From Candidatus Rokuibacteriota bacterium (lineage in GTDB: Bacteria > Methylomirabilota > Methylomirabilia > Rokubacteriales > CSP1-6), in the NCBI GenBank assembly GCA_030647435.1, contig JAUSJX010000141.1, forward strand, positions 52,394 to 116,393: a DNA stretch of 64,000 bases, read 5' to 3'. Of the stretch, positions 3,384 to 51,088 are shown in pieces. The position numbers and the translations under genes were made by a program. Under the pieces are notes generated by a model, which saw only the letters and a program-made list of their open reading frames with translations, was not told the DNA's origin and did no database searches. Position 1 is the first letter of the stretch, and each line of letters starts with the position of its first letter.

Positions 3384-5710
3384 CAGCCGAGCCTCGACTC
3401 CACGGGCCGGCCGCGCCAGCGGCGCAGCCACCGGGTGACGCGCACGATCGCGAAGAAGACGGTGAGCGAACCCCGCATGCGAAGCCGCATGCGCAGAAAG
3501 GCGCCGCCCGCCAGGACTCCCAGGACGCTGTCGAGGATCCCCAGCCGGTTGCGCGGCTGGAGAAAGACCTCGAGGAAGGCGGGCTCGTAGTAGCGGCGGA
3601 TGAAGCGGACGAACGGGCTGACGCCGCGATGGACGCGCCGCACGTACCCGTTGAAGCGCCGCGCCTCGAAGCGGTCCTCGGCGAAGGCGGCGAGGATCTC
3701 CGCGGCCGCCATCTCGCCCGTCTGCATGGCGATGTAGACGCCCGAGGAGAAAATGGGATCCACGAAGGCCAGCGAGTCGCCGACGCAGAGGAAGCGGTCG
3801 CCCGCCACCGGGTGTGTCAGGTAGGAGAAGTTCGCCGCGCTCCGCACGGGTGTGACGCGGCGGGCCCCGCGGAGCCCCTCCGCGACCCGGCGGCAGCGGA
3901 AGATCATCTCCTCGTACAGCGCCTCGAGCGTGCCCTCCCGCCCCCGCGCCGTCTTCGCGTGGAGGACGCAGCCGATGCTCGTCAGGCCGCCCGCGAACGG
4001 GATCCACCAGAACCAGCCGTCCTCGAAGATGTAGAGACGGATCAACCCCTCGTCGCGCCCCTGCCAGCGCGGCGCGCCCTCGTAATGGGCGAAGAGGGCG
4101 ACCTTGCCGAGGCCCGGGATGGGAGCGCGCCGGCCCACGCGGCGCGAGGCGAGAAAGCCGTCCCGGCCGCTGGCGTCGACGACGAAGCGCGCGCGAAGCG
4201 CCCGCGACTCGCCGCCCTCGCGGATCCCGACGGTCGCGCCGTCCGCGTCGAACTCCACCCGCTCCACCGTGGCCGGCTGAAGCACGCTCGCGCCCGGCTC
4301 CTTGGCGGCGTGCTCGAAGAGGATCTGGTCGAACTCCGCCCGAGGCACCTCGTAGCTGTAGTTCGGCCACGGCTGGCCCTCGCGGAAGTAAAAGCGGTAC
4401 TCGAGATCGGACTCCTGGTCGTGGAAGGCCGCCCCGTACTTGACGAGGAAGCCGTGCCGTTCGATCCGCTCGCGGACACCGAGCCGGTCGAGCAGCGGCA
4501 TCATGGCCGGCAGGAGCGATTCGCCGACGTGAAAGCGCGGGAAGACCTCGCGCTCCGCGATCGCCACGCGCAGGCCCCCGCGGGCGAGGAAGGTCGCGGC
4601 CGTCGAGCCGGCCGGCCCGCCACCCACGACAAGGACATCATAGTCCGCCGGCGGTGACTCGGGCCGCGCGGCGCCGGGCAGCGACGCGGCCAGCCGTTCC
4701 TGTGAAAATATCCGCCGTACGAGGGGCGAGACAAGGTTGGGACCCGGACGCCGTCCGAGCCCGAGCGCCCCCTGCACCGCCGCTGCCGCCGCCAGCACGG
4801 GCAGCGCCGCGGTTGCCAGGGCCGCGCGGCGCATGACGCAGGCCCGCGGGTCCCACCACCAACCCCGCCAGCTTTGGGCGATGCGGTCGAGCATGAAGGC
4901 TCCCATCGCCATCGCGTAGGCTCCGTAGTTGTAGCGGTACGGCGCCGCGAAGCGGTGCATCTCGCGGTGACGCTGCTTGAGGCGCGCGGGCGTGAGCGGC
5001 CTCAGGAGCACCGCCGCGACGATCCCCGCATCCCGGACCCAGCGCCGGATGCCGCGGGCTATGAGATACGTCGCCACGGCGGTGCCGTCGCGGAGCGGCC
5101 GGAAGTGGCTCGGCCGTCCCGCCCCGAGCCCCGGCGTCACCGGGACTTCGCGGATGGCGAAGCCCGCCGCGGCGGCCCGCAAGAGCATCTCGCTCTCGAG
5201 CACGAAGCCGCCGCGCCGCGGCCTCACCGCCTCGAGCAGCTTCCGCGGGTAGACGCGGAACCCGGACTGCGTGTCGGCGACGGCCTGCCCGGTCAGCCAG
5301 TTGATGAAGAAGCCGGCCACCCGCTGCGCGTTCAGGCGGGCGGGCTCCATGGAGGCGCCGCCATCGGAGAGCCGGCTCCCGATGACGAGCGTTCCCGGCA
5401 GGGCGGCGGACGCCGCGAGAAGCTGCGGAATGTCATCGGGATCGTGCTGCCCGTCTCCGTCGAGCGTGAGCACACGCTCGGCGCCGCGGGAGAGCGCCTC
5501 GGCGAAGCCCGCGCGCAGCGCCCCGCCCTTGCCGCAGCGACCGGCGAGGCGGAGCACGGCGGCGCCCGCGGCCGCGGCCGCGTCGGCGCTGCCGTCGGAG
5601 GAGCCGTCGTCCACGACGAGGACGGGGCCATGGCGCACCGCGCGCGCCACGAGAGCGCCGATCGTCGGGGCCTCGTTGAAGACCGGGATGACGGCGACGT
5701 GGTCACTCAT
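3380..5710 (-). CDS. Fusion protein: GT2 polyprenyl-phosphate glycosyltransferase-like domain (GtrB/ArnC type), hydrophobic linker, flavin-dependent halogenase domain
   Basis: 776 aa. N-terminus VIPVFNEAPTIGALV...VVDDGSSDGS...LDGDGQHDP is a GT2 DxD-type fold. Hydrophobic segments follow (YGAYAMAMGAFML, AALATAALPVLAAAAAVQGALGLG). C-terminal half has DYDVLVVGGGPAGS (GxGxxG), FPRFHVGESLLP, GWFWWIPF (WxWxIP) and FVDPIFSSGVY. Confidence 0.8.
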   Translation of the reverse strand: MSDHVAVIPVFNEAPTIGALVARAVRHGPVLVVDDGSSDGSADAAAAAGAAVLRLAGRCGKGGALRAGFAEALSRGAERVLTLDGDGQHDPDDIPQLLAASAALPGTLVIGSRLSDGGASMEPARLNAQRVAGFFINWLTGQAVADTQSGFRVYPRKLLEAVRPRRGGFVLESEMLLRAAAAGFAIREVPVTPGLGAGRPSHFRPLRDGTAVATYLIARGIRRWVRDAGIVAAVLLRPLTPARLKQRHREMHRFAAPYRYNYGAYAMAMGAFMLDRIAQSWRGWWWDPRACVMRRAALATAALPVLAAAAAVQGALGLGRRPGPNLVSPLVRRIFSQERLAASLPGAARPESPPADYDVLVVGGGPAGSTAATFLARGGLRVAIAEREVFPRFHVGESLLPAMMPLLDRLGVRERIERHGFLVKYGAAFHDQESDLEYRFYFREGQPWPNYSYEVPRAEFDQILFEHAAKEPGASVLQPATVERVEFDADGATVGIREGGESRALRARFVVDASGRDGFLASRRVGRRAPIPGLGKVALFAHYEGAPRWQGRDEGLIRLYIFEDGWFWWIPFAGGLTSIGCVLHAKTARGREGTLEALYEEMIFRCRRVAEGLRGARRVTPVRSAANFSYLTHPVAGDRFLCVGDSLAFVDPIFSSGVYIAMQTGEMAAAEILAAFAEDRFEARRFNGYVRRVHRGVSPFVRFIRRYYEPAFLEVFLQPRNRLGILDSVLGVLAGGAFLRMRLRMRGSLTVFFAIVRVTRWLRRWRGRPVESRLGW

Positions 5711-6834
5711 GCCGCTTGCCCGACGACAAGGGCCGTACGGCAGCCGCCGCGGGCGATCCCGTGCACCAGCGCGGGCGCGCGCCCCGCGCGCGCGTCGAGC
5801 GCTGCGGCGGCGACACGGAGGGCGCCGAGTCCTCCATGCTGGCCGAAGAGCGGCGCCAGCGACACCGGATCCCGCACGCCGTCGGCCGCGAGCAGCCGCA
5901 GCTCCCAGTCATCGAGCGCCGGGTCGCCGTTGCCCGAGCCGTAGCAGCGCGCCAGAGACGCGGCCTCGACGCCCGCCTGGTCCAACGCCCGGCGCGCGAT
6001 GGCGCGCGCGTCGCGCCGGCCGGCAGGGGCCGTGTGCGGAGCCACCGGGATGCCGCCCCAGGCGGCACCCAGGACTTCGGCATGGATCGCGGCGCCGCGC
6101 GCCCGCGCCGCCTCCCTCTCCTCCAGCACCAGGAAGGTGGCGCCTTCGCCGAGCACGGGCCCGTTGTGGTCGTGAGCAAAGGGGCGGCAGCCTTCGGGAG
6201 CACCGCCGCCCATCGGAGAGAGCGCCCCCAATCGGGCCAGGTTCCGGTAGACGTCGCTGAAGAGCTCGTCCACGCCGCCGGCGACCACGGCCTCCGCCCG
6301 CCCGTCGGCGATGAGCGCGGCCGCCCGCGCCACGGCCAGATCGCCGGCCACCGTCGCCTGGTTGAGCGTCACGGAGGACGCCTTGGCGCCGATGGCGATG
6401 GCCGCCACTGCCGCCATGCTGTTCATCACCGTGCTCGGGAACACCATCGGCGAGAGCCCCGCCGGCCCGCGGCGGAGGAAGCCGTCGAAGAACTCCGCGC
6501 CCGAGCGGAAGTCGCCGAATTCGCTGCCGACGACGAGCCCCAGCCGCGGGCCGCCCTCGAGCCCGGCCTCCTCGACGGCCAGGCGGCAGGCGGCCAGGGT
6601 CATGCGGCAGATCCGCGAGAGCCGGCGCACGCTGTCGGAGTCAAGCAGCGCCATGAGCCGCGCGTCGCTAACCTCGGCAGCCAGGCGGCTCGCGCACCCG
6701 TCCAGGGTGAAGGCTTTGAGTGGCGCAATGGTGGCCCTCCGCCGCTCGAGCGCCTGGGCCACGGCCGCTGTGCCGCCGGCCCCGGCCGCGCTGACCGAGC
6801 CCATCCCCGTGATCACGACCCGGCGCCCGGACAT
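5707..6834 (-). CDS. Ketosynthase-like protein lacking the active-site Cys and both His (chain-length-factor/KS-beta-like partner)
   Basis: ATG at 6834 (MSGRRVVITGMGSVSAAG...). The position of the KS TACASG motif reads TLNQATVAGD. The usual HGTGT and GH motifs read GSGNGDP and FGQHGG. TAATG and ATGA overlaps with its neighbours. Confidence 0.75.
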   Translation of the reverse strand: MSGRRVVITGMGSVSAAGAGGTAAVAQALERRRATIAPLKAFTLDGCASRLAAEVSDARLMALLDSDSVRRLSRICRMTLAACRLAVEEAGLEGGPRLGLVVGSEFGDFRSGAEFFDGFLRRGPAGLSPMVFPSTVMNSMAAVAAIAIGAKASSVTLNQATVAGDLAVARAAALIADGRAEAVVAGGVDELFSDVYRNLARLGALSPMGGGAPEGCRPFAHDHNGPVLGEGATFLVLEEREAARARGAAIHAEVLGAAWGGIPVAPHTAPAGRRDARAIARRALDQAGVEAASLARCYGSGNGDPALDDWELRLLAADGVRDPVSLAPLFGQHGGLGALRVAAAALDARAGRAPALVHGIARGGCRTALVVGQAA

Positions 6835-8021
6835 TATCGGCCGAAGATCAGGCTCACGTTGTGGCCGCCGAAGCCGAAGGAGTTGGACAGCGCGGCGTGC
6901 AGCTCGACGGGGCGCGCCGTCTGAGCGACGCAGTCGAAGGGCACGTCCGGGTCCGGATCGGTCAGATTGGCGGTCGGCGGAATCAGCCCGTGCTGCAGCG
7001 CGAGGAGGGTCGCCACCGCCTCGACGCTGCCCGCCGCCGCCATGGTGTGGCCGACGAGCGACTTGGTCGAACTCACCAGCACGCGGCCCTCCCCGAAGAC
7101 GCGCGCCATGGCCAGGGCCTCGACACGGTCGTTCTGCGGCGTCCCCGTGCCGTGCGCGTTGACGTAGCCGATGTCGCCCGGCTCGCGCCCGGCCGCGTCG
7201 AGCGCATCGGACATGGCGCGGATCATCCCCTCGCCCTCCGGGTGCGGCGCCGTGACGTGGTGGGCGTCCGTGGTGACGCCGGCGCCCAGGAGCTCGCCGA
7301 GCACGCGCCCGCCGCGCCGGCGGCAGTGCTCGGAGTCTTCGAGCACGACAAACGCGGCTGCTTCGCCGATGGACATGCCGCGCCGCCCGCGGTCGAAGGG
7401 CCGGCACGGCTCGGGGTCGAGCAGCTTGAGCGCATTGAAGCCCATGAAGCAGATGCGCGTGATGGCATCCACGCCCCCCGCGAGCGCCAGCGGGGTCGCG
7501 CCGGAGCGGATGAGGTCGGCGCCGAAGGCTATGGAGGCCGCGCCGGAGGCGCAGGCCATGACCACGGTCTCCCTGGGCCCGCCGAGCCCCAGCCGCCAGC
7601 CGAGCATCTCCGCGTGGCTCGCCGGCAGGATGGAGCGGAGCGCCCCGATCCTTGGCGAGGGCCGCAGGCGAAGCGCCTCTTCACAGTACCAACCCTCGCC
7701 CTCGAGCATGCCGCCGCCCACGGCGCCGACGAAGAGCGCCATGTCCGTCCGGTCCCGCGGCGCGAGGTCGGCGTCGGCCACGGCCTCGCGGGCCGCGGCA
7801 AGGGCCAGGCGGTCGGCGCGCGAGCGCCGGCGAGAGACGCCGAGGGCGCCGACGACGTCGGCGGGCACCTCCGCCGCGATGCGCGACCGAAAACCCTCCG
7901 TGTCGATGACGGTCAGCGGCCGGATGGCGCACTGGCCCGAGGCCAGGCCGGCCCAGAAGGTCTTAACACCGGCGCCGTAGGGGCTGACGACGCCGAGGCC
8001 GCTGACGACGACGCGCGTCAT
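6834..8021 (-). CDS. Beta-ketoacyl-ACP synthase (FabF/KS-alpha type, catalytically intact)
   Basis: ATG at 8021 (MTRVVVSGLGVVSPYG...). Cys motif VVMACASGAASIA, His motifs NAHGTGTPQND and VGHTMAAAGS. Confidence 0.9.
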   Translation of the reverse strand: MTRVVVSGLGVVSPYGAGVKTFWAGLASGQCAIRPLTVIDTEGFRSRIAAEVPADVVGALGVSRRRSRADRLALAAAREAVADADLAPRDRTDMALFVGAVGGGMLEGEGWYCEEALRLRPSPRIGALRSILPASHAEMLGWRLGLGGPRETVVMACASGAASIAFGADLIRSGATPLALAGGVDAITRICFMGFNALKLLDPEPCRPFDRGRRGMSIGEAAAFVVLEDSEHCRRRGGRVLGELLGAGVTTDAHHVTAPHPEGEGMIRAMSDALDAAGREPGDIGYVNAHGTGTPQNDRVEALAMARVFGEGRVLVSSTKSLVGHTMAAAGSVEAVATLLALQHGLIPPTANLTDPDPDVPFDCVAQTARPVELHAALSNSFGFGGHNVSLIFGR

Positions 8022-8287: not shown

Positions 8288-9120
8288 GCGATCCGCCTCC
8301 GCCGGGGCCGCGCCGCCCCGCGCATCTGGTATGGGCTCTGGCTCCACGCGAGCCGCGCCGACTCGCCCCGCCATGCGCCCTGTAAGCGTAGCGGTCCCGT
8401 GGCGCCGCCGTCGCGCGCGAGGGCCAGGACCGCCACGGGCTCGCAAGCCAGCATCTCGCCGAGGCGCTGCCGCACGCCTCCCGTCTCCCGCCGCCCGCCA
8501 CGCCTCTGATCGAAGCTGAGCGTGCCCTCGCCCGGCTCGAGCCAGAGGCAGCCGGCCGCCTCCACCAGCGGCCGCGCGAGCCGCCCCCGCGCTCGCGCGA
8601 AGAGATTTTCGCACTCCTCGAAGATCTCGACAGCCAGGACCAGCGCGCGGTCGCAGGCTCCAGATTCCAGGAGCGCCGCCGCGCGCGCGATGGCTCTCAT
8701 CGTCGCCGTGGGCCCGCCGATCAGGATCTCGTACGGGCCTGTGAGCCCGAACTCGATGGCGACCTCGGCCGGCACCGCGGCGGCCGCCGTGTAGGGGAAA
8801 TACATGCCGCCGATCCGCGCCTCGATGAACTCGCGGTTGGAGGCCGCATACGCGGCAGCGGTGGCGAAGAGAAGCCCTGTCCGCTCGCCCGCGATGATCT
8901 CGGCCCCTACCCCAGCATCTTCCAGCATGGCGCCCACAGCCGCAACCCCCAGGAGAGATTCGCGCCGCGAGCGCCGGAAGCGCTCGTGGGTGAAGGCGGG
9001 CCGCTCGATGCTCAGGACGGCGCGTCCCACGGCGGCCCGTGCGGCGTCCGAGGGCACGGCCGCCGCGCCAGGTCCCCAGCCCGACAGCAGCCCCACGGCC
9101 CGGATCGCCGGAGCGCGCAT
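8284..9120 (-). CDS. Truncated thiolase-fold / KS N-terminal-like protein without a catalytic Cys
   Basis: 278 aa. KS-like N-terminal half (LLGVAAVGAMLEDAGV..., GLTGPYEILIGGPTATMRAIARAAALLESG) in which the Cys position is Thr/Ala-type. No C-terminal His motifs. Confidence 0.65.
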   Translation of the reverse strand: MRAPAIRAVGLLSGWGPGAAAVPSDAARAAVGRAVLSIERPAFTHERFRRSRRESLLGVAAVGAMLEDAGVGAEIIAGERTGLLFATAAAYAASNREFIEARIGGMYFPYTAAAAVPAEVAIEFGLTGPYEILIGGPTATMRAIARAAALLESGACDRALVLAVEIFEECENLFARARGRLARPLVEAAGCLWLEPGEGTLSFDQRRGGRRETGGVRQRLGEMLACEPVAVLALARDGGATGPLRLQGAWRGESARLAWSQSPYQMRGAARPRRRRIA

Positions 9121-14600: not shown

Positions 14601-14703
14601 GCCCCTCAGCTCGAACGTCCACGTACGTTGAGCCTGCGGCCGAGGGCACCCCAACAGTCTTCTTGCTAAATGGCGCAGATGGGCTCTTTTCAGCAGCCTG
14701 CTA
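14509..14703. repeat. Palindromic MITE/REP-like element, copy A (long form)
   Basis: Termini TAACAGGCTGCTCAAAAGGGTCCAGATGCG ... CGCAGATGGGCTCTTTTCAGCAGCCTGCTA are imperfect inverted repeats. Near-identical core to the copies at 40739, 49372 and 57685. Confidence 0.85.
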
Positions 14704-40741: not shown

Positions 40742-40886
40742 CAGGCCTCTGGCTACGGCCGAAGGCGGCTGAGAAGGGTCCAGATGCGAGGCGGCGCCCG
40801 AAGGCCGCACGCGAGGCGTACTCCCTGTACGTTGAGCGTGCGGCCGAGGGCACCAACGAAGCAGATGGGCCCTTATCGGCCGCCTG

Positions 40887-40889
<3 letters not shown>
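40739..40889. repeat. Palindromic MITE/REP-like element, copy B (short form with extra sequence at the left end)
   Basis: TAGCAGGCC...GAGAAGGGTCCAGATGCGAGGCGGCGCCCGAAGGCCGCACGCGAGGCGTAC...GCAGATGGGCCCTTATCGGCCGCCTGCTA. Confidence 0.85.
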
Positions 40890-48870: not shown

Positions 48871-49269
48871 TCAGGCGGCCAGCGGTGTGTCGGTCGCGGC
48901 CTGCCGGGGAGCGTCGAGCTGCTGGGGCAGCGGCCGAGCGCCGAACGCGCCGGGTCTGAACACGATCTCCAGGCGCTCCGCCGCCTTCTCCGCGGCGAAG
49001 TGGCGCGCGGTCACGCGCAGGAGGGCCGCCACCAGTGCCGGCCGGTCGATGGGCACGGCCATGGACACCCGCCAGCCGCCACCGCGCCGCCGGCTCACTA
49101 CTGGCGCCGCCACGGCGCCGAGCTCCCAGTGGATCGCGTCGGTGAGCATGATCTGCTGGTCCCGCTGGAGATCCCGACGATCCTGCAGCCGCTCGGCGAG
49201 TCTGAGCAGCGCGCTCACTGCAACGAACGGAATCGCTACGATTACAAGAATCGCGACCAGGGCTGTCAT
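48871..49269 (-). CDS. Small membrane-anchored hypothetical protein
   Basis: ATG at 49269 is preceded by AAGGAGGG. N-terminal TM MTALVAILVIVAIPFVAVSALL. No recognisable domain. Confidence 0.55.
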   Translation of the reverse strand: MTALVAILVIVAIPFVAVSALLRLAERLQDRRDLQRDQQIMLTDAIHWELGAVAAPVVSRRRGGGWRVSMAVPIDRPALVAALLRVTARHFAAEKAAERLEIVFRPGAFGARPLPQQLDAPRQAATDTPLAA

Positions 49270-49371
49270 GGGCTCCCTCCTTGTGCCCACTAAGACACCG
49301 GAGGGCCGCGCGCGTGAAACGCGCCGAGCGCGACCGACCAGCCGAGACCAGCAGGATGTTGAAAAACCGCG

Positions 49372-49499
49372 CAGGCTGCTCAAAAGGGTCCAGATGCGAG
49401 GCGGCGCCCGACGGCCGCACGCGAGGCGTACTCCCCGTACGTTGAGCGTGCGGCCGAGGGCGCCAACGAAGCAGATGGGCCCTTTTCAGCAGCCTGCTA
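49372..49499. repeat. Palindromic MITE/REP-like element, copy C (short form)
   Basis: CAGGCTGCTCAAAAGGGTCCAGATGCGAGGCGGCGCCCGACGGCCGCACGCGAGGCGTACTCCCCGTACGTTGAGCGTGCGGCCGAGGGCGCCAACGAAGCAGATGGGCCCTTTTCAGCAGCCTGCTA. Folds on paper into one long imperfect hairpin. Confidence 0.85.
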
Positions 49500-50456
49500 C
49501 GCGGAGAGCGGGTGGAGATCCGGCCGGCAGGCCGCGCAGGGAGTGAGACCGACAGCCTCGGCGTGCCGGCGCGCGCCGAACAGCGTGAGCTGGGCCATCG
49601 GCTCCCGTGATAGGGAGCCGCACGTCGGCAGGCAATACTCCGCGTACCCCTCGAACAGGACGTACATGTGGCCGCGCTCGATCCTGTGGGCGCGGAGACC
49701 CACCGGGACGCCCTCGAGCGAGAGCAGCTGCTCCTTGAGCCCGATCCTGCTTCCGGCATAGCCGGTCAGGTCCCCGCTGCTGCCGATCACGCGATGGCAC
49801 GGGATGGCGATGGGTATGGGATTGTGCCGGAGCGCCTGGGCGACGGCGCGCACCGACGCAGGCGCGCCGATGCGCCGTGCGATCCCGGCGTAGGACGTGA
49901 TGGCACCATAGGGCAGCTCGGCCGTGGCGGCGAGCACGCGCCGCTGGAAGTCGCTCCCCGCCCACCGGAGGTCGAGCGGCCAGCTGAGCCGGGTGCTCCG
50001 GGCGCTCAGGTAGTCGAGGAGCTCCCGGTACGTCGCCTCGACTGCCGCCTTGTCTTCCACCGCGTCGTCCCCGGCCAGGCGGGCCAGGTACGACCGAGCC
50101 GAGCGCTCCGAATCGATGTACCTGACCATCGAGACGCCCAGCTCAGAGCGGGCGATGAGGATCTTGCCCAGCGGCGACGAAAAGATGCCGTAGGCGACCA
50201 TGCGGGACCGGATGTCGGCCAGCCGGGACTCGAGCTCGGCGCGCGCCAGCGTGGGTTCGGCCCCGGCCACGGGCGCGCGGCGAAGATCCGCCACCATGCC
50301 CTCGAGCACGCGATAGCGCTCGAGCTCGTCGCGGCAGCCACGGCAGACGGCCACGTGCCGCTCGACGCCTCGCGCAGCGGAAGCTCCGGCCTCGCCCGCG
50401 GCCACGGCCACCAGATCGGGTTCGATGTCACGGCAGGTCGAGTTCTCGGGGTTCAT
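49497..50456 (-). CDS. Three-domain fusion: ZAS-type anti-sigma domain, O6-alkylguanine-DNA methyltransferase (Ogt/MGMT) and Ada-type zinc-binding domain
   Basis: 319 aa, no TM segment. C8-x25-H34-x3-C38-x2-C41 (HVAVCRGC). MGMT core PYGAITSYAGIA...IPCHRVIGSSGDLTGYAG. C-terminal YCLPTCGSL...GLTPCAACRP (CxxxC...CxxC). ATGA overlap with the sigma-factor gene. Confidence 0.8.
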   Translation of the reverse strand: MNPENSTCRDIEPDLVAVAAGEAGASAARGVERHVAVCRGCRDELERYRVLEGMVADLRRAPVAGAEPTLARAELESRLADIRSRMVAYGIFSSPLGKILIARSELGVSMVRYIDSERSARSYLARLAGDDAVEDKAAVEATYRELLDYLSARSTRLSWPLDLRWAGSDFQRRVLAATAELPYGAITSYAGIARRIGAPASVRAVAQALRHNPIPIAIPCHRVIGSSGDLTGYAGSRIGLKEQLLSLEGVPVGLRAHRIERGHMYVLFEGYAEYCLPTCGSLSREPMAQLTLFGARRHAEAVGLTPCAACRPDLHPLSA

Positions 50457-50992
50457 GGCTGTCGCTCCGTGTGGACGGCGTCGAGATCATCCAGTCCCCG
50501 GCGGATCTTCCGCAGGGCTTGAAAGACATGGGCCCTGGCGCTCTCGGCCGAGCAGTCGAGGCTCTCACCGATGGCGTCGTAGTCGAGCTCGTGGACCTTC
50601 CGCATGGTAAAGGCCAGGCGCTGCTTGAACGGGAGCGCGGTGACGATCCGGTCGATCCGGGCGCCCGCCTGGCTGGCGATGGCTTCCCCCTCGGGCCAGG
50701 ACGACCCTCGCTCCGAGGCGCCGGCCGCCGCCATGACCATGGCCTGGCGCCGCCGCCCCTCCGCCCGGAAGTGATTGCGGAAGAGGTTGGTGGCGATGGT
50801 GAAGAGCCACGCCCTGACGTTGGCGTCCGGGGGCAGCGACCGATAGGCTTTGTAGGCTCGCACGAAGGTCTCCTGGGACAGATCGTCGGCATCGCTCGGG
50901 CGAGAGGTCGCCCGCGCGAGGTAGCGGTGTATCTCGGCATGGTGCGCGGCCACGACAGTCTCGAAGGGGTCCTCGGTCATGTCCCTGACCAT
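50453..50992 (-). CDS. ECF-type RNA polymerase sigma-70 family factor
   Basis: 179 aa. Region 2 DADDLSQETFVRAYKAY...VRAWLFTIATNLFRNHFR. Region 4 LPFKQRLAFTMRKVHELDYDAIGESLDCSAESARAHVFQALRKIR. Confidence 0.9.
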   Translation of the reverse strand: MVRDMTEDPFETVVAAHHAEIHRYLARATSRPSDADDLSQETFVRAYKAYRSLPPDANVRAWLFTIATNLFRNHFRAEGRRRQAMVMAAAGASERGSSWPEGEAIASQAGARIDRIVTALPFKQRLAFTMRKVHELDYDAIGESLDCSAESARAHVFQALRKIRRGLDDLDAVHTERQP

Positions 50993-51088
50993 GAGACACC
51001 GTAGCCCGGCGGATGTGAAATGGCCAGGTGCTCTATCATGAGGTCGGCGGCCCGAGCCCCCCTTTTCGCCCAGACACCGAGAGGCCCC

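Follow-up and report, generated by a model that had tools for sequence, protein, structure and literature searches.

The locus considered here raises the question of whether a protein that carries methyl-accepting DNA repair modules next to an anti-sigma domain could report alkylation damage by way of a sigma factor. In the textbook example, Ada, irreversible self-methylation converts chemical damage to DNA into a signal for transcription. The locus lies in a stretch of 64,000 nucleotides (referred to below as the window) from a soil bacterium of the Methylomirabilota (Rokubacteria). A preliminary description, made from the letters of the sequence, had claimed an ECF sigma factor translationally coupled to a protein combining a ZAS anti-sigma domain, an O6-alkylguanine-DNA methyltransferase (MGMT) and an Ada-type zinc domain. 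Its coordinates and motifs were all found to be correct when the ORFs and their translations were read, with both genes on the minus strand (Table 1), and independent profile or fold evidence was obtained for each module. We are highly confident that the two genes encode a sigma factor and its anti-sigma factor, the latter with MGMT and Ada-Zn modules that look functional.

Table 1. Features of the sigma/fusion locus, in window coordinates
Feature	Position	Strand	Remarks
ECF sigma gene	50453..50992	minus	179-aa ORF
Fusion gene	49497..50456	minus	319-aa cytoplasmic protein, directly downstream of the sigma gene
ZAS class-I anti-sigma domain, fusion residues 1-85	50202..50456	minus	C8, H34, C38, C41; profiles and AF2
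O6-alkylguanine-DNA methyltransferase (N-domain and DNA_binding_1), fusion residues 86-250	49707..50201	minus	Pfam, phmmer, Foldseek
Predicted acceptor Cys220, codon	49797-49799	minus	PCHRV
Ada-type Zn(Cys)4 domain, fusion residues ~260-313	49518..49679	minus	C275, C279, C307, C310
Putative promoter P1, ECF type, TTTCAC-N14-GGTGTC	50995..51020	minus	Exact match, directly upstream of the sigma gene
Putative promoter P2, second exact TTTCAC-N14-GGTGTC	49294..49319	minus	25 nt upstream of the small membrane-protein gene
Palindromic repeat element, ~130 nt	49358..49500	minus	Begins at the TAG stop of the fusion gene, then GGUUUUUC
Putative small membrane-protein gene	48871..49269	minus	132 aa, N-terminal hydrophobic helix

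The sigma factor consists of regions 2 and 4 only (Pfam Sigma70_r2, E 8e-17; Sigma70_r4_2, E 1e-10) and passes the NCBIfam model of the ECF superfamily (sigma70-ECF, TIGR02937) at 76.5 bits (cut-off 42.9). Translation probably begins at Met5 (ATG at 50980) rather than at 50992, giving a protein of 175 aa, because the orthologues begin there and the -10 element of the upstream promoter motif ends at 50995. The overlap claimed between the sigma stop and the downstream start can be read directly at 50453-50456, where TCAT on the plus strand corresponds to ATGA on the coding strand. A genome scan with a five-sequence alignment retrieved 23 loci with a full-length fusion gene, from Methylomirabilota, Binatia and other lineages; in all 23, a sigma homologue ends at the fusion start and the three-part architecture lies directly downstream of it, mostly with an overlap of 4 nt (e.g. 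6004 versus 6001). The MGMT-linked sigma factors of different phyla share 33-45% identity with each other. Neither an Rfam match nor a sigma-70-type promoter was found between 48500 and 51300, and the longer relatives of the fusion protein (P0183, P0196, P0197 and others) have N-terminal extensions only, with no sigma-ZAS-MGMT triple fusion among them. The possibilities that the 319-aa frame arose by chance in GC-rich sequence or from a chimeric mis-assembly were considered and rejected, as its full length is kept in more than 110 clusters and in 23 genomes.

The ZAS motif, described beforehand as complete, is present in the translation as H-x3-C-x2-C with an upstream fourth ligand (C8, H34, C38 and C41), and none of 27 family members deviates at H34, C38 or C41. 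A profile of the N-terminal part of the family found four anti-sigma factors of known structure, RslA (3HUG_B, E 3e-7), DdvA (4e-5), ChrR (2e-3) and RsiW (4e-3), and AF2 predicts helices at residues 8-19, 25-37, 39-60 and 68-85. Motif, homology, a predicted four-helix fold of about 80-90 residues and the adjoining sigma gene all mark this region as a putative ZAS class-I anti-sigma domain. A different reading is that the zinc motif has nothing to do with sigma binding, the sigma and MGMT genes merely sharing an operon while the sigma factor is controlled elsewhere. This would agree with the listing of the MGMT-associated group ECF122 without a cognate anti-sigma factor (PMC8999054), with the ZAS-MGMT genes of candidate division KSB1, which have no neighbouring sigma gene, and with the zf-HC2 score of the whole fusion protein, which at 21.7 bits stands 0.5 bits below the cut-off of 22.2. 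The isolated N-terminal 88 aa, however, reach 25.9 bits, the profile finds four distinct class-I anti-sigma factors of solved structure, a four-helix bundle is predicted, and the gene adjoins a sigma gene in 23 of 23 loci, with stop and start overlapping in many; we consider this reading extremely improbable.

The following part of the protein was claimed to be a full methyltransferase with the acceptor motif PCHRV, and this was borne out by the residues themselves (P219-C220-H221-R222-V223), by the Pfam and NCBIfam models and by a predicted two-domain AGT fold. On the whole fusion protein, DNA_binding_1 was matched with E 2.8e-29 and Methyltransf_1N with 22.8 bits (cut-off 21), while NCBIfam ogt gave 95.7 bits against a cut-off of 46.4. 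Searches with phmmer found Mycobacterium tuberculosis OGT (E 4e-24) and Ada-C (1SFE, 2e-22), and the fold matches of the AF2 model found by Foldseek were again Ada-C and M. tuberculosis OGT, together with SsOGT, with target-normalised TM-scores of 0.82 (1SFE), 0.83 (4BHB) and up to 0.88 (SsOGT). Y189, R203, N212, C220, H221 and E248 fall in conserved alignment columns, and we take them to be the counterparts, at an offset of +75/+76, of Y114, R128, N137, C145, H146 and E172 of human AGT. Motif and fold thus identify Cys220 as the putative alkyl acceptor, and alkyl transfer to it is predicted.

The four C-terminal cysteines (C275-x3-C279 and C307-x2-C310), claimed to be Ada zinc ligands, do fall on C38, C42, C69 and C72 of Ada in an alignment with E. 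coli N-Ada (1ADN), with C275 opposite the methyl acceptor Cys38. The profile of the C-terminal domain matched 1ADN with E 2.8e-12 and all four cysteines aligned; 24 of 24 family members match Pfam Ada_Zn_binding (best 1.9e-15), the four cysteines being invariant in these 24. The protein of the window itself scores 19.2 bits as a whole and 22.3 bits as an isolated domain, the cut-off being 23. The domain covers positions 26/27-65 of the 65 in the Pfam profile and lacks the first ~25, and the 1ADN alignment spans Ada residues 23-77 only, so that a complete Ada zinc domain with its N-terminal helix was not found. The block-mean pLDDT of the AF2 model over this region is 82-96. Foldseek with the whole fusion model finds N-Ada weakly (1WPK, E 0.8), so that the case for homology to Ada is made by the sequence profile. 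Cys275 may take up a methyl group from methylphosphotriesters. A Pfam search for the proposed architecture with the whole protein thus passed the thresholds for DNA_binding_1 and Methyltransf_1N, whereas zf-HC2 and Ada_Zn_binding remained below theirs and became solid in the domain-level tests.

At an identity of only 30-56%, nine three-part proteins show no change at any of the 12 ligand and active-site residues. In close homologues of at least 300 aa, PCHRV is kept in 115 of 115, the CHCC set of the ZAS domain in 114 and the Ada Cys4 set in 113, and PCHR is kept in 118 of 118 distant relatives; the two complete counts were made without a motif pre-filter. This conservation is far beyond chance. 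It also bears on a DNA-tethering or partner-switch model, in which binding of damaged DNA by the MGMT and Ada-Zn modules sterically competes with the sigma factor; as in alkyltransferase-like (ATL) proteins, no methyl transfer would be involved, and recognition of the damage would be enough to free the sigma factor. The conserved DNA-binding residues (Tyr189, the Arg203 finger and the Asn212 hinge) are compatible with such tethering, as are the alkyltransferase-like (PWQRV) genes that accompany the pair 1-2 kb downstream in Binatia-type loci and the distant representative P0124, which has PSHR instead of PCHR. A pure damage binder, however, would not need the PCHR that is kept in every one of the counted close and distant relatives; strict conservation extends to the Ada Cys4 set, and P0124 may be a sequencing variant. 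We think this model highly unlikely.

The zinc site of the ZAS domain offers another candidate sensor. In a model of the RsrA kind, its zinc-thiolate centre would sense oxidation, thiol-reactive electrophiles or its own direct S-methylation by an SN2 agent (a methyl halide, for example), and MGMT and Ada-Zn would be repair cargo. Zinc-bound thiolates are good methyl acceptors, as the chemistry of Ada illustrates, the C8/H34/C38/C41 set has the invariance just described in the nine diverse three-part proteins and nearly all close relatives, and RslA and ChrR, which the family profile matches, are solved ZAS factors. Many ZAS sites are, on the other hand, structural rather than sensory, and the NCBIfam RsrA equivalog model (TIGR03988) gives 13.5 bits against a cut-off of 62.5. 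Moreover, the sigma-adjacent MGMT relatives of Anaerolineales (P0338) and Actinomycetota (L066) lack H-x3-C-x2-C and retain PCHR, and the conservation in cis of two further methyl-acceptor modules would be left unexplained. We rate this model as unlikely. As the ZAS-less relatives of Chloroflexota and Actinomycetota keep PCHR, the MGMT is the module common to all sigma-linked forms, and the sensing function that they share is accordingly more likely to lie in the MGMT than in the zinc site.

Directly upstream of the sigma gene lies a putative ECF-type promoter, TTTCAC-N14-GGTGTC, which matches twice in the 64 kb of the window (0.35 expected) and not once in 1.28 Mb of unrelated control loci. 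Of the 23 orthologous loci, 22 have the strict pattern ahead of their sigma gene; in the remaining one, L007, a position weight matrix (PWM) derived from the sites in these loci recovered a GGCGTC variant. Behind the fusion gene, the second motif recurs in 15 Methylomirabilota-type loci (strict pattern) and in L007 (PWM), and it stands upstream of a homologous small gene in the 12 loci where the ORF picker detected that gene. In Binatia-type loci, the PWM found no second copy within 12 kb. The conserved, predicted promoter in front of both the sigma gene and the small gene is new in this analysis, and the latter gene is likely to belong to the targets of the sigma factor as well.

These targets could also be read as those of an expression buffer that senses no alkylation: the sigma factor would mainly express the repair protein, the anti-sigma domain would provide simple negative feedback, and release would come from general proteolysis or an unrelated signal. 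The recognisable regulon in the available sequence, consisting of the operon and one small gene, is in keeping with this, and a domain scan of the flanking ORFs in the window found no alkA, alkB or aidB-type gene, or any other repair gene, adjoining the pair. The target scan, however, covered 64 kb of the host genome, a dedicated sigma/anti-sigma loop is elaborate for constitutive expression, and the suicide chemistry of MGMT automatically ties the fate of the protein to damage. Such a buffer is, in our view, distinctly unlikely.

The reading that we prefer, with somewhat less than an even chance of being right, is that alkyl transfer to the fusion protein is the signal that releases the sigma factor. 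We infer that in undamaged cells the four-helix ZAS domain (residues 1-85) would bind the sigma factor and keep it inactive. Upon DNA alkylation, the MGMT module would move the alkyl group from O6-alkylguanine to Cys220, and the Ada-type zinc module may also accept a methyl group from a methylphosphotriester on Cys275. The irreversibly alkylated protein would be destabilised or changed in conformation, and the sigma factor would be released. In the AF2 model of the fusion (pLDDT 87.7), the four N-terminal helices are followed at once by the MGMT fold; helix 4 of the anti-sigma domain is directly continuous with strand 1 of the MGMT N-domain, which could allow a conformational change to be transmitted. 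The free sigma factor would then transcribe its own operon from P1, replacing the spent repair/anti-sigma protein and shutting the system off, and would also transcribe the small membrane protein from the second, identical promoter. In effect, the circuit would measure the remaining pool of unalkylated fusion protein.

Known alkyltransferases offer a precedent for the release step. Methylated and benzylated hAGT is highly unstable, and methylation lowers the Tm of SsOGT from 80 to 60 C via the interdomain interface (PMC4605297); alkylated SsOGT still bound DNA, and the destabilisation was seen in vitro only (PMC4605297). The alkylation switch gains some support from the MGMT active site, which is kept in every sigma-linked relative, even those lacking the zinc ligands, and from the putative ECF-type promoter of the operon itself, as would be expected of a self-replenishing loop. 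Counting against it are that the only local second target is a small membrane protein, that the complete, invariant CHCC site in the branch of the window could itself be the sensor, that KSB1 has ZAS-MGMT proteins away from any sigma gene, and that the Ada-like domain is partial, its score lying just under the Pfam cut-off.

The preliminary description was not aware of any characterisation of this arrangement. This holds for experiments, as a literature search returned nothing relevant, but not for the neighbourhood, already catalogued as ECF122, a group with an MGMT gene conserved in its neighbourhood, no anti-sigma factor and an 'unknown mechanism', for which a Cellulomonas example is named (PMC8999054); the association itself is therefore not new. 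The description of ECF122 used here comes from this 2022 review alone, which summarises the classification of Casas-Pastor et al. 2021, the main text of which mentions neither ECF122 nor MGMT. As in ECF122, an MGMT gene is conserved beside the ECF sigma gene at the loci related to the window, and the Actinomycetota locus L066 is of the ECF122 type, with a sigma factor 35% identical to that of the window over its full length. Compared with the group description, the branch of the window differs in having a clear ZAS anti-sigma domain, an additional C-terminal Ada zinc domain on its MGMT, and a host among the Methylomirabilota. The new element is that a bona fide anti-sigma domain and an Ada zinc module are now recognised in this ECF/MGMT branch.

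With E. coli Ada, the fusion protein shares the same two methyl-acceptor modules, its Zn(Cys)4 domain being homologous to N-Ada and its MGMT fold closest to Ada-C (1SFE), and, under the alkylation switch, the use of irreversible self-methylation as a transcriptional signal together with autoregulation. It differs in lacking the AraC-type HTH (no HTH_AraC match in Pfam), in its reversed domain order with the zinc domain C-terminal, in the absence of the N-terminal part of the Pfam model from that domain, and in its proposed output: Ada binds promoters directly, whereas the fusion protein would act by holding and releasing an ECF sigma factor. The Ada regulator model PRK15435 scores 99.5 bits where 345 are required, its match being confined to the MGMT part. 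Like the cytoplasmic ZAS anti-sigma factors of the RsrA/SigR, RslA/SigL and ChrR/RpoE pairs, the protein has H-x3-C-x2-C with an upstream fourth ligand and a predicted four-helix class-I domain, and its gene lies immediately downstream of, and coupled to, that of an ECF sigma factor. The attached partner sets it apart: an alkyltransferase and Ada-Zn here, a cupin in ChrR, a membrane anchor in RslA and RsiW, and nothing in RsrA. Alkyltransferase domains joined to a second functional module also occur in AGT-EndoV and in C. elegans AGT-2 (PMC10779285), although the added domains there are nuclease or histone-like. That 2023 review of alkyltransferases describes no fusion that sequesters a transcription factor, and the word 'sigma' is absent from it (PMC10779285).

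It is plausible that the sigma/MGMT-Ada anti-sigma system is an uncharacterised switch that raises the repair protein when alkylation exhausts its pool. We also advance, more tentatively still, the broader idea that an adaptive response to alkylation arose a second time and independently: an MGMT with an Ada-type zinc domain would hold an ECF sigma factor and free it once irreversibly alkylated, the unspent repair pool being measured and refilled, and the sigma-linked MGMTs without ZAS ligands in Chloroflexota and Actinomycetota (ECF122 type) would be a simpler form of this switch. If true, the chemistry of Ada would be wired to a wholly different output, the release of an ECF sigma factor, and covalent consumption of an anti-sigma factor by its own DNA repair reaction would represent a new class of ECF input. 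The mechanism listed as unknown for ECF122 would then be explained, and the sigma factor, the fusion protein and the TTTCAC-N14-GGTGTC promoter would make a simple, portable biosensor of alkylation damage. The system concerns abundant, uncultured soil phyla (Methylomirabilota and Binatia).

The 132-aa protein encoded behind P2 has no match in Pfam, NCBIfam or a PDB sequence profile search, and its 277 homologues are all annotated as hypothetical, none with a Pfam domain. Its AF2 model (pLDDT 73) shows a small beta-beta-alpha-beta domain after a long helix; Foldseek found no significant fold match for it, and the N-terminal hydrophobic helix is probably a membrane anchor. The gene is kept downstream of the fusion gene in loci L002-L017. 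Between the fusion gene and P2, the palindromic repeat element is predicted to fold as RNA with -105.7 kcal/mol (z -6.05), a terminator-like structure that would separate the operon from P2. An arm of this element also occurs at 14675-14701 and 40861-40887 of the window.

The sigma factor and the fusion protein are encoded by adjacent genes on the minus strand, and the stop codon of the former overlaps the start codon of the latter, as the preliminary description had noted: the plus strand reads TCAT at 50453-50456, which gives ATGA on the coding strand. Judging from this overlap and from domain matches, an ECF sigma gene is translationally coupled to a gene with a predicted cytoplasmic class-I anti-sigma domain, and a sigma/anti-sigma pair carrying repair modules is very probable. 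The sigma factor most likely starts at 50980 (Met5), 12 nt downstream of the ATG of the longest ORF, because the -10 element of the first promoter ends at 50995, only 2 nt before that annotated ATG at 50992, and the sigma orthologues start at the residue that matches Met5. The window has a G+C content of 69%, and its nearest genome relatives are the Methylomirabilota/Rokubacteria MAGs L002 and L011 (75% protein identity); an identical protein is present on the Logan assembly of run SRR13727527.

Coordinates of features in the window and in related genome loci (L handles)
Feature	Position	Strand	Remark
Sigma ORF	50992 to 50453	-	179 aa
Fusion ORF	50456 to 49497	-	319 aa
First promoter copy	50995-51020	-	before sigma gene
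Second promoter copy	49294-49319	-	25 nt before 132-aa ORF
132-aa small protein ORF	48871-49269	-	behind exact second copy of sigma promoter
Near-perfect palindromic repeat element, ~130 nt	49358-49500	-	RNA fold -105.7 kcal/mol, z -6
Further palindrome arms	14675-14701; 40861-40887	-	
L019, divergent motif copy	~5232-5256	-	Methylomirabilota-type
L022, Binatia-type example	7012-7479		
L024, Binatia-type example	7051-7887; 8355-8741		
L082, KSB1 ZAS-MGMT	3533-4348		
L083, KSB1 ZAS-MGMT	3491-4306		
L074 (Denitrobaculum), MGMT-AdaZn match	6001-7005		

The three parts that had been read into the fusion protein from its sequence, namely a complete ZAS motif, a full MGMT with the acceptor PCHRV and an Ada-type four-cysteine zinc block, were all borne out by profile searches. 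The translation contains each of the residues named in the preliminary description; the ZAS ligands are C8, H34, C38 and C41. The whole protein scored 0.5 bits under the zf-HC2 cut-off, and its 88 N-terminal residues in isolation passed it (25.9 bits against 22.2); a profile of 27 family N-termini matched four solved class-I anti-sigma factors, RslA (3HUG_B; 3e-7), DdvA (4e-5), ChrR (2e-3) and RsiW (4e-3). The AlphaFold2 model of the fusion (mean pLDDT 87.7, pTM 0.72) places N-terminal helices at residues 8-19, 25-37, 39-60 and 68-85, with a low-confidence loop ahead of helix 4, directly after which the first MGMT strand begins at residue 87.

In the MGMT module, which carries P219-C220-H221-R222-V223, Pfam DNA_binding_1 was matched with an E-value of 2.8e-29 and Methyltransf_1N above its cut-off. 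Among solved structures, the closest matches are M. tuberculosis OGT (E 4e-24) and E. coli Ada-C (1SFE), and superposition of the predicted fold on Ada-C, MtOGT and SsOGT gave target-normalised TM scores of 0.82-0.88. Tyr189, Arg203, Asn212, Cys220, His221 and Glu248 occupy conserved alignment columns and correspond, shifted by +75/+76, to the residues with which human AGT performs catalysis and DNA flipping. At the C-terminus (C275-x3-C279 and C307-x2-C310), the window's sequence alone aligned weakly to N-Ada (E 0.2), its four cysteines falling on Ada C38, C42, C69 and C72, and a profile of 24 C-termini matched N-Ada (1ADN) with an E-value of 2.8e-12. All 24 matched Pfam Ada_Zn_binding, in a domain shortened N-terminally to profile positions 26-65 (Ada residues 23-77). 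Two intact-looking methyl-acceptor modules are fused to the anti-sigma domain. Pfam detected no AraC HTH in the whole protein, and with 99.5 bits against a PRK15435 cut-off of 345 the fusion lies outside the Ada regulator family, which by analogy it would resemble in using self-methylation as a signal.

The same 319-aa layout occurs in more than 110 clusters at 67-92% identity, and in an unfiltered count of close relatives PCHRV was conserved in 115/115, CHCC in 114/115 and the Ada Cys4 set in 113/115. All 12 ligand and active-site residues were invariant across nine three-part proteins that share only 30-56% identity among themselves. P0124, a three-part relative with 50% identity, has PSHR in place of PCHR (acceptor Cys to Ser), which could reflect an error in sequencing or a sensor variant that is non-catalytic and ATL-like. 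A search of 50%-identity representatives yielded three related architectures, ZAS-MGMT-AdaZn, ZAS-MGMT and MGMT-AdaZn. The last, lacking both ZAS and an AraC HTH, is a separate two-domain architecture (P0149, P0153, P0163, P0179, P0185, P0191-P0194, P0226, P0231 and P0233) whose domain order is the reverse of canonical Ada, and for which we found no published description.

Scanning one genome per species, we detected full-length fusions in 23 loci, hosted by Methylomirabilota, Binatia, a 'Baltobacteraceae' MAG, a delta-proteobacterial MAG and two evidently mislabelled MAGs. Each of the 23 has a sigma gene, homologous to that of the window, that ends where the fusion starts, in many with a 4-nt ORF overlap. 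The 57 other scanned loci, mostly canonical Ada, had no such sigma gene, with the sole exception of L066 (Actinomycetota), whose sigma gene precedes an MGMT that is briefly extended at its N-terminus and lacks the ZAS motif. Sigma and MGMT genes coupled by a 4-nt overlap were also found in Dehalococcoidia (ZAS present) and Anaerolineales (ZAS ligands absent), and across these phyla the MGMT-linked sigma factors share 33-45% identity. Beside the KSB1 ZAS-MGMT genes, in which the first ligand is of the HHCC type, there is no sigma gene, and a peptidase M1 gene lies upstream; these proteins either act in trans or have a zinc domain that serves another purpose.

Nearly all loci carry TTTCAC-N14-GG(T/G)GT(C/T) ahead of the sigma gene, an ECF-type promoter through which the sigma-fusion operon probably autoregulates. 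Two exact copies occur in the window against 0.35 expected, and 1.28 Mb of unrelated loci contained none by regular expression or by a position weight matrix (PWM) built from the promoter motif sites. In Methylomirabilota-type loci a second copy lies downstream of the fusion in 15 cases by the strict pattern and in one more (L007) by PWM, and homologues of the 132-aa small gene are present in L002-L017. In L019, neither method found a downstream copy; the second copy there is divergent, pointing away from the sigma gene. The 132-aa protein, probably membrane-anchored by an N-terminal hydrophobic helix, contains the conserved motif RQIxLTDAIHxELGAxxAP; all 277 homologues are annotated as hypothetical, and Pfam, NCBIfam, PDB and fold searches gave no match. 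Binatia-type loci (L018, L020, L021, L022 and L024) lack this small gene, and PWM found no second promoter copy in the 12 kb scanned. They encode, 1-2 kb downstream of the pair, a ~125-aa alkyltransferase-like (ATL-like) protein with PWQRV for PCHRV, preceded in all except L022, where it directly follows the fusion, by a conserved protein of ~275 aa whose N-terminus resembles a signal peptide and which belongs to no Pfam family.

These observations uphold the anatomy behind the preliminary interpretation and leave its release mechanism plausible and inferred. The fusion would sequester the sigma factor until Cys220, and possibly Cys275, takes up an alkyl group from damaged DNA, which would disable the fusion as an anti-sigma factor; the freed sigma factor would then re-express the pair. 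That alkylation triggers release we hold tentatively, at slightly less than an even chance. As a point against it, the CHCC site, strictly conserved in this branch, could itself sense electrophiles, but sigma-linked relatives without zinc ligands keep the MGMT acceptor cysteine, and the fusion does not score as RsrA (13.5 bits against 62.5). Alkylation sensing is favoured over an RsrA-like zinc/redox sensor because an MGMT with an intact acceptor cysteine is common to all sigma-linked relatives, because an MGMT is consumed stoichiometrically, making an autoregulated anti-sigma-MGMT a natural feedback device, and because alkylated AGTs are destabilised through the N/C-domain interface (PMC4605297) and helix 4 joins the MGMT N-domain directly in the model. 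Also against alkylation-triggered release, the sole second target seen is a protein without known function, the KSB1 genes stand apart from any sigma gene, and the domain-scanned ORFs flanking the pair in the window include no other alkylation-repair genes.

The preliminary description knew of no characterised system of this kind. Literature searches on ECF/anti-sigma factors with alkyltransferase, MMS or the adaptive response likewise found nothing relevant, and sigma factors go unmentioned in a 2023 review of alkyltransferase fusions (PMC10779285), but the ECF-MGMT association itself is already catalogued. A 2022 review places ECF122, exemplified by Cellulomonas, among groups 'without cognate anti-sigma factors', gives '6-O-methylguanine DNA methyltransferases' as conserved in its neighbourhood and labels it 'unknown mechanism' (PMC8999054). 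L066 fits this description; the system in the window has the sigma-MGMT coupling in common with it but differs, by description, in its recognisable ZAS anti-sigma domain and Ada zinc domain. The promoter and the probable local regulon are new here.

The palindromic element occurs at least three times in the window, each copy opening with the TAG that lies where a minus-strand ORF ends. Orthologous loci lack the ~150-nt palindromic insertion, and the second promoter there lies 15-50 nt past the stop codon. The copy behind the fusion gene, followed by GGUUUUUC, looks like a terminator.
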